Shown: one piece after another, positions 16,580 through 17,263 of the stretch
How the letters are laid out: the number at the start of each line of letters is the position of its first letter
How positions within the stretch are numbered: the first letter of the stretch is position 1
Source of the DNA: a virus
Length of the DNA stretch: 24,650 nt
Virus genome (UHGV): UHGV-0200293
Reading direction: 5' to 3' (one strand)
Notes under the pieces: generated by a model
What the model saw: only the letters and a program-made list of their open reading frames with translations
What the model was told of the DNA's origin: nothing
The model's database searches: none
Translations under genes and position numbers: made by a program

Positions 16580-17263
16580 TCAGTTCGGTTTTGCAAGACT
16601 TACATTCGAATTTGTCGCCTTTTGTTGTAAACGTGATCGCGTTACGGAGATAAGCGCATCATTATCGAGCCGCTTAAAGACATTACGCAGTGCCAACCAG
16701 TGAGGCAGGTACGTCTCTGTCCAGGTGGATTTAGCTACGCCCACCAGCTCAGCCAGCTTCTGGTACTCGTACGTCTCGCGGCCGCACAGCTCTGCTTTGA
16801 CGTCCTGCGCCGCCAACCAGATTAACGCCCGGAGTCGCTCCAGCGTTTTTCCGGCGATTTTCTTGCCAGCGAGTTGCGCCGTAAACTTATTCCATGCCCA
16901 GCGGGTTATGTCGACCTGATATTCAAACCGAGTATTTTCACTGTAGCTCCAGAGCAACTAGGCTTTTTGATGCTCGTCGAGCGACATTAGCGCCCGACGC
17001 CATGAAGCAGTGGAGTATTCAACCGGCTGCACCAGCGGGATATGCGATCCTTTGGCGTGTGATTGTTTTCCGGGGATCGGAGGGTTGTTCAGCGTTATCA
17101 GTTTTCCCGTAACTTCATCGCGTACACGCAACCTCTTGCGGGGGTAAGTATTCGTATCGAACTGCGCGTTCTCCAGCCAGGCCATTAACTGACCCTTTGT
17201 CGCTCCGCTCAGATCTGCCGTGGCCGCAATCAGTTGCTGGCGAATATAGGATAAATTTTTCAC
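16580..17263 (-). pseudogene. Q: Late-gene antiterminator Q (Phage_antitermQ-like) split by an in-frame TAG at 16958-16960
   Basis: The 101-aa and 125-aa track ORFs are contiguous in one frame: ...RRALMSLDEHQKA-TAG-LLWSYSENTRFEYQVDITRWAWNKF... The GTG start overlaps the upstream stop (GTGA). The total of 227 codons is typical of this Q family. Confidence 0.75.

Follow-up and report, generated by a model that had tools for sequence, protein, structure and literature searches.

Can one codon keep a whole prophage silent? The question is raised by a late antiterminator gene, Q, which is cut by a single amber codon in the DNA analysed here (the window, i.e. the whole stretch of 24,650 nucleotides from the UHGV virus genome UHGV-0200293). 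The initial annotation saw in this codon a one-step lock, which would by itself silence lysis and morphogenesis and could be opened again by one mutation or by suppression. According to our analysis a simpler answer is to be preferred, and we give it a probability of about 0.88: Q is an ordinary pseudogene, one of many lesions in a decayed lambdoid prophage remnant of Citrobacter koseri, and not a switch.

The interrupted frame itself is exactly as it had been described. Two minus-strand open reading frames, 17263..16958 (101 aa, with a GTG start) and 16957..16580 (125 aa), are contiguous and lie in the same frame, and the sole break in the frame of 227 codons (101+1+125) is a TAG, seen as CTA on the plus strand at 16958-16960. 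The translation across the break reads SLDEHQKA-stop-LLWSYSENTRFEYQ. With the stop read as X, the joined product covers positions 1-218 of 220 of the Pfam profile PF06323 (E 2e-100, 335 bits, at a curated cut-off of 25 bits); the N-terminal piece occupies profile positions 1-100 and the C-terminal piece positions 102-218, and either of them alone passes the cut-off. Q proteins comprise three sequence-unrelated families, Q21 (PF06530), Q-lambda (PF03589) and Q82 (PF06323) (PMC9388147). The Q product had no match to the profiles of the first two, and PF06323 was the sole family found at E<=0.01. The gene is indeed a late antiterminator Q, as proposed, and its family is PF06323 (Q82), not the 'Phage_antitermQ' family PF06530 (Q21) named before. 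The experimentally characterised Q of phage 82 (X92588.1) is 64-66% identical to it over 98% of the length. A functional member of the Q82 family has an uninterrupted frame of about 227 aa, and here a TAG stands at codon 102; judged by its sequence, the split Q is a pseudogene of the PF06323 family without functional membership. A sequence search for a solved structure gave none bar a spurious repeat-protein match, and an AlphaFold2 model of a close full-length homologue, made from a 36-sequence alignment, had a mean pLDDT of 45 and was unusable.

The position of the gene also fits the family. Q lies at the end of the nin region, upstream of a late promoter-like site, a short leader, a terminator and the lysis genes, in the order ninG, ylcG, Q, promoter-like site, IsrJ-like leader with a hairpin and a T tract, holin, endolysin and spanin (Table 1), and its GTG start overlaps the stop codon of the ylcG-like gene. 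Phage 82 and the Salmonella prophage Gifsy-1 (STM2617) share this neighbourhood, with ninG, ylcG/orf45 and Q followed by the late promoter, a short leader and a terminator. The Q proteins of both are full-length family matches of 64-67% identity in which Trp102 is conserved, whereas the copy in the window is interrupted by TAG at Trp102, retains the first 101 residues only and belongs to a defective element of C. koseri.

Table 1. Features of the prophage remnant, in coordinates of the window
Feature	Position	Strand	Remarks
gtrB-like glycosyltransferase and gtrC-like membrane protein	271..2914	+	purB-proximal end; O-antigen modification cargo
Major tail protein, truncated or chimeric	2941..3750	-	homology only over residues 1-178; then convergent gtrC
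Neck (head-tail) gene	4013..4381	-	amber at 4352-4354 (AAC TAG GCG), the tenth codon
Head-tail gene	4650..4999	-	frameshift close to the 3' end, near 4700; two frames
Major capsid (coat) gene	5773..6852	-	amber at 5842-5844 (ACC TGG GGT to ACC TAG GGT); 336 aa vs 359
Rz-like spanin	14812..15273	-	apparently intact in the window strain
Endolysin	15270..15758	-	apparently intact in the window strain
Holin	15761..16030	-	ochre at 15872-15874 (CAA to TAA), after 52 of 90 codons
First late terminator	16515..16488	-	12-bp GC-rich hairpin and T tract, 50 nt past the promoter-like site
IsrJ-like leader, 77 nt	16488..16564	-	Rfam RF01393, model positions 1-75 of 75, 55.5 bits vs gathering threshold 37
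Late-promoter-like site (pR' analogue)	16568..16596	-	TTGCAA-17-TATATT; overlaps the end of Q; same position in relatives
Q82-family antiterminator pseudogene	16580..17263	-	227 codons with a single internal TAG; PF06323 match
Amber TAG in place of invariant Trp102 (TGG)	16958..16960	-	W/TGG in every homologue; TAG in six sister C. koseri loci
Former Dcm site CCTGG, now CCTAG	16958..16962	-	G-to-A, the complement of C-to-T at the inner (presumed methylated) cytosine of the other strand
ylcG-like gene	17260..17400	-	directly upstream of Q, as in phage 82 (orf45) and Gifsy-1; phrog_2705
ninG	17397..18034	-	internal deletion or frameshift at about 17885-17890; two tblastn frames
Recombination gene remnant, 5'-truncated	21073..21705	+	match confined to the C-terminal ~146 aa (profile positions 474-619 of 633)
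Integrase	22264..23550	+	phoP-proximal end of the island

The codon that was lost can be recovered from the relatives. A genome scan gave 29 loci with Q homologues of 59-82% identity, translated from DNA, and all 29 read (Q/N/H)(K/Q/N)AW(L/I)LW at the amber site, which bears out both the AW(L/I) motif and the lost tryptophan of the initial annotation. Tryptophan is present there also in the Q of phage 82 (X92588.1), in the Gifsy-1 Q, in the counterpart from an intact Klebsiella phage and in the database homologues that were aligned. Since tryptophan has one codon, one G-to-A transition, from TGG to TAG, accounts for the change in Q; the closest relative has GCA TGG CTG vs GCC TAG TTG in the window. 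The related genomes, which had been suggested as a place to look for the intact allele, yielded no such allele above 82% identity in the scan of genome contigs, in a protein search of 5.8 billion clusters or in a survey of ylcG neighbourhoods. The repaired 227-aa Q was absent from a collection of 15 billion proteins in an exact look-up, with the best intact relative being 82% identical, and near-identical DNA for the Q region was found neither in E. coli genomes nor in the phage collection. The window's Q allele is known only broken.

The element that carries it is a remnant of about 24 kb, which on the carrier contigs is placed between purB and phoP of C. koseri. The response regulator encoded at 23621..24295 is identical to C. 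koseri PhoP (CKO_01922), and C. koseri proteins also match the integrase and the gtrC-like protein exactly. Altogether 53 contigs, the longest a 4.75-Mb chromosome, and 76 collection blocks (NCBI, ENA, Logan) carry the exact 101-aa N-terminal fragment of Q. At the DNA level, six independently assembled sister loci have the Q site, with TAG in 6/6, and isolate genomes and metagenome scaffolds have identical DNA. One sister locus, L031, is identical to the window over 17.7 kb. L032 and L036 have extra deletions, which take out terS-terL-portal together with parts of Rz and of the coat region, and in L035 the integrase is split. L034 (CP052059.1) has lost the lysis and packaging genes, and its Q bears, at 6420..6440, the TAG plus an 8-bp deletion (TCAAAAAG) directly upstream, which is a second hit in an already dead Q. 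Finally, in L042 and L043 everything from the head-tail genes through to dinI is gone, Q included, and gtrABC, int, xis, the TolA-like gene and dinI are kept. The gtr cargo adjoins host purB, with gtrA located just left of the window in the sister contigs (the L042 copy occupies 9678..12644), and it is kept in all strains seen, even where most of the prophage is deleted.

The sister strains show that the remnant goes on eroding, up to the complete loss of Q. All six sister loci have in common the Q TAG, the ochre in the holin and the junctions in ninG and in the early region, so that the Q amber may have been the first of these old inactivating events. The overall pattern is one of neutral erosion of a vertically inherited remnant, not of a maintained switch.

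How much of the phage has been lost besides Q is seen best in comparison with its relatives. In the early region, positions 19088-19232 (dinI) and 21270-21940 align to two points of Gifsy-2 that are 8.9 kb apart there and about 2 kb apart here, and the Gifsy-2 interval collapsed in the window brackets O, P, cII, cro, cI, exoVIII and recT. At the other end, intact relatives go on with a tape-measure gene and further tail genes after the major tail protein; no tail genes were found in the element past the truncated one, and beyond gtrABC comes host purB. The C-terminal 108 aa of this tail protein had no match in the phage collection. In ninG the N-terminal Cys motif (17885..18034) is out of frame with the rest (17397..17885), the junction being common to the sister loci.

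Stops have appeared in the late genes as well. The holin homologues, 7 of 7 phage proteins, are continuous over residues 1-90, and the codon is CAA in Salmonella phage UPF_BP1, the one homologue aligned as DNA. The cut holin, as judged by eye, keeps both predicted membrane helices and loses its C-terminal tail. The coat codon is TGG in L034 and in a Klebsiella phage, and the coat amber is the younger one because L034 still has TGG. The neck codon is CAG, in a CCAGG context, in Klebsiella phage 2 LV-2017 and AAG in a more distant relative. A further late gene (about 3810-4020) is shortened by an internal deletion and bears an in-frame TAG at 3957..3959 (-), outside Dcm sites; its real stop is a TAG as well, at 3810..3812 (-).

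Altogether, the induction, replication, lysis and virion-assembly modules are lost or disrupted, which is the condition of a cryptic prophage. Cryptic lambdoid prophages are familiar in enterobacteria, for example DLP12, Rac and Qin of E. coli K-12. Like these, the remnant is flanked by an integrase, has lost immunity, replication and tail, shows nonsense mutations, frameshifts and nested deletions, and has kept its cargo (here gtrABC); unlike them, it occupies the purB-phoP site, resides in a C. koseri host and has another Q allele.

The nature of the amber codons points to a common source. CCWGG is the target of the Dcm methyltransferase, and deamination of 5-methylcytosine makes it a mutation hotspot that generates amber codons. 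The coat amber arose by CCTGG to CCTAG, in the same Dcm context as the Q amber, and the neck amber by CCAGG to CTAGG if its ancestor was CAG, as the nearest relative suggests. Two of the three, Q and coat, are directly supported and the third has an inferred ancestor, and in each the change is C-to-T at the inner cytosine of CCWGG, on either strand. In 17 genes we counted 1487 possible nonsense substitutions, 347 of them transitions, and only 22 fall on the inner cytosine of CCWGG, all 22 of which give TAG. That three ambers of three are at Dcm sites would be expected by chance with a probability of about 2.5e-4; if all five premature stops are taken, including the holin TAA and the TAG at 3957, three of five are at Dcm sites where 6% is expected (about 2e-3). 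Among 38 ordinary SNPs between sister strains none is at a Dcm site, so that the hotspot signal rests on the three events.

In our view the Q amber is most likely the result of a 5-methylcytosine having been deaminated at its Dcm site (CCTGG to CCTAG); the coat amber most likely has the same origin, and the neck amber probably does. C. koseri encodes a Dcm orthologue that shares 84% identity with the E. coli enzyme over its full length, and it is from this identity that methylation of CCWGG in vivo may be presumed; the accession numbers of some of these Dcm orthologues suggest, from the numbering alone, that they belong to assemblies which also carry the integrase and gtrC of the window. A literature search on Dcm methylation in Citrobacter gave nothing usable. 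Coulondre and Miller are said to have traced, in 1978, the amber hotspots of lacI in E. coli to deamination at Dcm sites. The contexts and outcomes are the same in both cases, CCAGG to CTAGG (CAG to TAG) and CCTGG to CCTAG (TGG to TAG), with the difference that lacI was a laboratory reporter and here we deal with natural mutations fixed in a prophage remnant. The three CCWGG ambers would be a natural example of 5-methylcytosine deamination driving prophage decay, which is new here.

The consequences for the late operon can be sketched as follows. A single G-to-A transition turned Trp102 of a phage-82-type Q from TGG into TAG; translation would stop after 101 of 227 residues, giving no full-length Q and presumably no Q activity. 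Polymerase leaving the intact late promoter would then halt at the strong first terminator, and the only product of this promoter would be the IsrJ-like leader RNA of about 77 nt. Our terminator scan placed its five best minus-strand matches to a hairpin plus T tract at 16515-16488, 14315-14296, 8563-8544, 4421-4402 and 3790-3771, and these, all strong matches on the late strand, equal the five late-operon terminators listed earlier, in a sequence whose total of terminator-like matches is not above that of shuffled sequence.

The leader deserves attention of its own. In Citrobacter youngae, as in an intact Klebsiella phage (L001, L037), the isrJ element comes directly after Q, and in Gifsy-1 (L045) it lies downstream of Q past an isrK-anrP insert. 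In Salmonella, the IsrJ of Gifsy-1, encoded downstream of a Q-like gene, is a short and stable RNA that starts at a site of its own and ends in a rho-independent terminator (PMC4825925). The window has a match to the whole model directly after Q, as compared to Gifsy-1, where the match scores 100 bits (55 here) and the isrK-anrP module separates Q from isrJ. From this position we infer that IsrJ-type RNAs may be the terminated leaders of Q82-type late operons, and the coincidence of IsrJ with such a leader suggests what this 'island sRNA' is by nature. The 6S RNA of phage lambda is the analogue of such a terminated late-promoter leader.

It might even be imagined that the leader of about 77 nt is itself the selected product, with a Q amber supplied by the Dcm site as the favoured route by which a lethal late operon becomes a constitutive sRNA gene and gtrABC is kept. 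If so, ambers at Dcm sites would be a recurrent easy path of prophage domestication. We regard this as unlikely.

The idea of a lock, with the prophage otherwise competent and the Q amber alone holding it off until a reversion or a suppressor reactivates it, has its attractions. Q is the sole activator of a late operon studded with terminators, the change is of a single base, and the frames of terminase, portal, endolysin and spanin are open in the window strain. It is very unlikely nonetheless, because the element is without its tail module and its immunity and replication region, because holin, coat, neck, ninG and a head-tail gene are each broken independently, and because the same region keeps eroding in sister strains. 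Low-level natural readthrough of the Q TAG may take place. With immunity, replication and tail gone and further point lesions present, reversion of Q would restore no induction, replication, lysis or virions; neither the silencing by the amber alone nor the reversible lock that was originally proposed can be upheld. The pseudogene reading accounts for Q as one casualty among these.

Some phages recode stop codons to time their late-gene expression, and it may be asked if the TAGs in Q, coat and neck are read in a programmed way, with the help of a suppressor tRNA or through recoding. Late genes do have a concentration of several in-frame TAGs, and none of the 15 tabulated open reading frames ends with TAG. 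However, the window has no tRNA gene; the ambers replace Trp, Trp and probably Gln, for all of which one suppressor is insufficient; the coat codon, still TGG in a sister strain, must have become TAG recently; the late gene with the internal TAG at 3957 uses TAG as its true stop; and frameshifts, an ochre and large deletions stand alongside the ambers. The bias to TAG is fully explained by the Dcm-site chemistry. We give programmed decoding hardly any credence, and the ambers are better regarded as marks of decay.

Nor do we give much more than a passing thought to a functional split Q, in which the 101-aa and 125-aa pieces cooperate or the N-terminal piece is active alone. A TTG directly after the TAG allows the 125-aa frame to be opened, and both pieces are reported by gene callers, but no Shine-Dalgarno-like motif is visible by eye upstream of this TTG, and the homologues are single proteins: the best 120 of 2784 matches in the 5.8-billion-cluster search have 216-230 aa, the 29 genomic loci agree, and intact phages have Q as one gene of about 227-229 codons. 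A version with two genes, or a natural member of about 100 aa, either of which would have spoken against the single interrupted gene of the initial annotation, was not seen among the homologues examined. The 8-bp deletion in one sister shifts the frame at the end of the N-terminal piece, and other sisters are without the gene, which argues that there is no selection for either piece. This reading, too, we consider highly implausible. That the TAG is a base-calling error of one assembly, as a single base off the family consensus might suggest, has practically no chance of being true, given the spread of the 101-aa product over contigs and collection blocks of varied sources and the identical DNA in isolates and metagenomes.

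Taken as a pseudogene, the split Q becomes a matter of annotation: it should be recorded as a dead gene in a defective C. koseri remnant, whose stable cargo is the gtrABC operon for O-antigen modification.

Several observations were made alongside. The gap that separates the late terminator from the holin contains an 86-aa frame at 16213..16473 (+), which gene calls report in every sister contig, with no Pfam match on record for it there. Between the head-morphogenesis and the scaffold-like genes an open reading frame of 189 aa is inserted at 8839..9408 (-), belonging to phrog_4350. Outside Citrobacter, Leclercia adecarboxylata NCTC13032 (L028, L029) has two Q82-family copies, both with disrupted frames in the C-terminal half, which are either real pseudogenes or indel errors of long reads. 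At the former early region, a TolA-like frame at 20406..20810 (+) encodes a lipoprotein-like product of 134 aa with the TolA C-terminal domain (PF06519; phrog_5772); every strain seen has retained this frame, which is possibly a moron.
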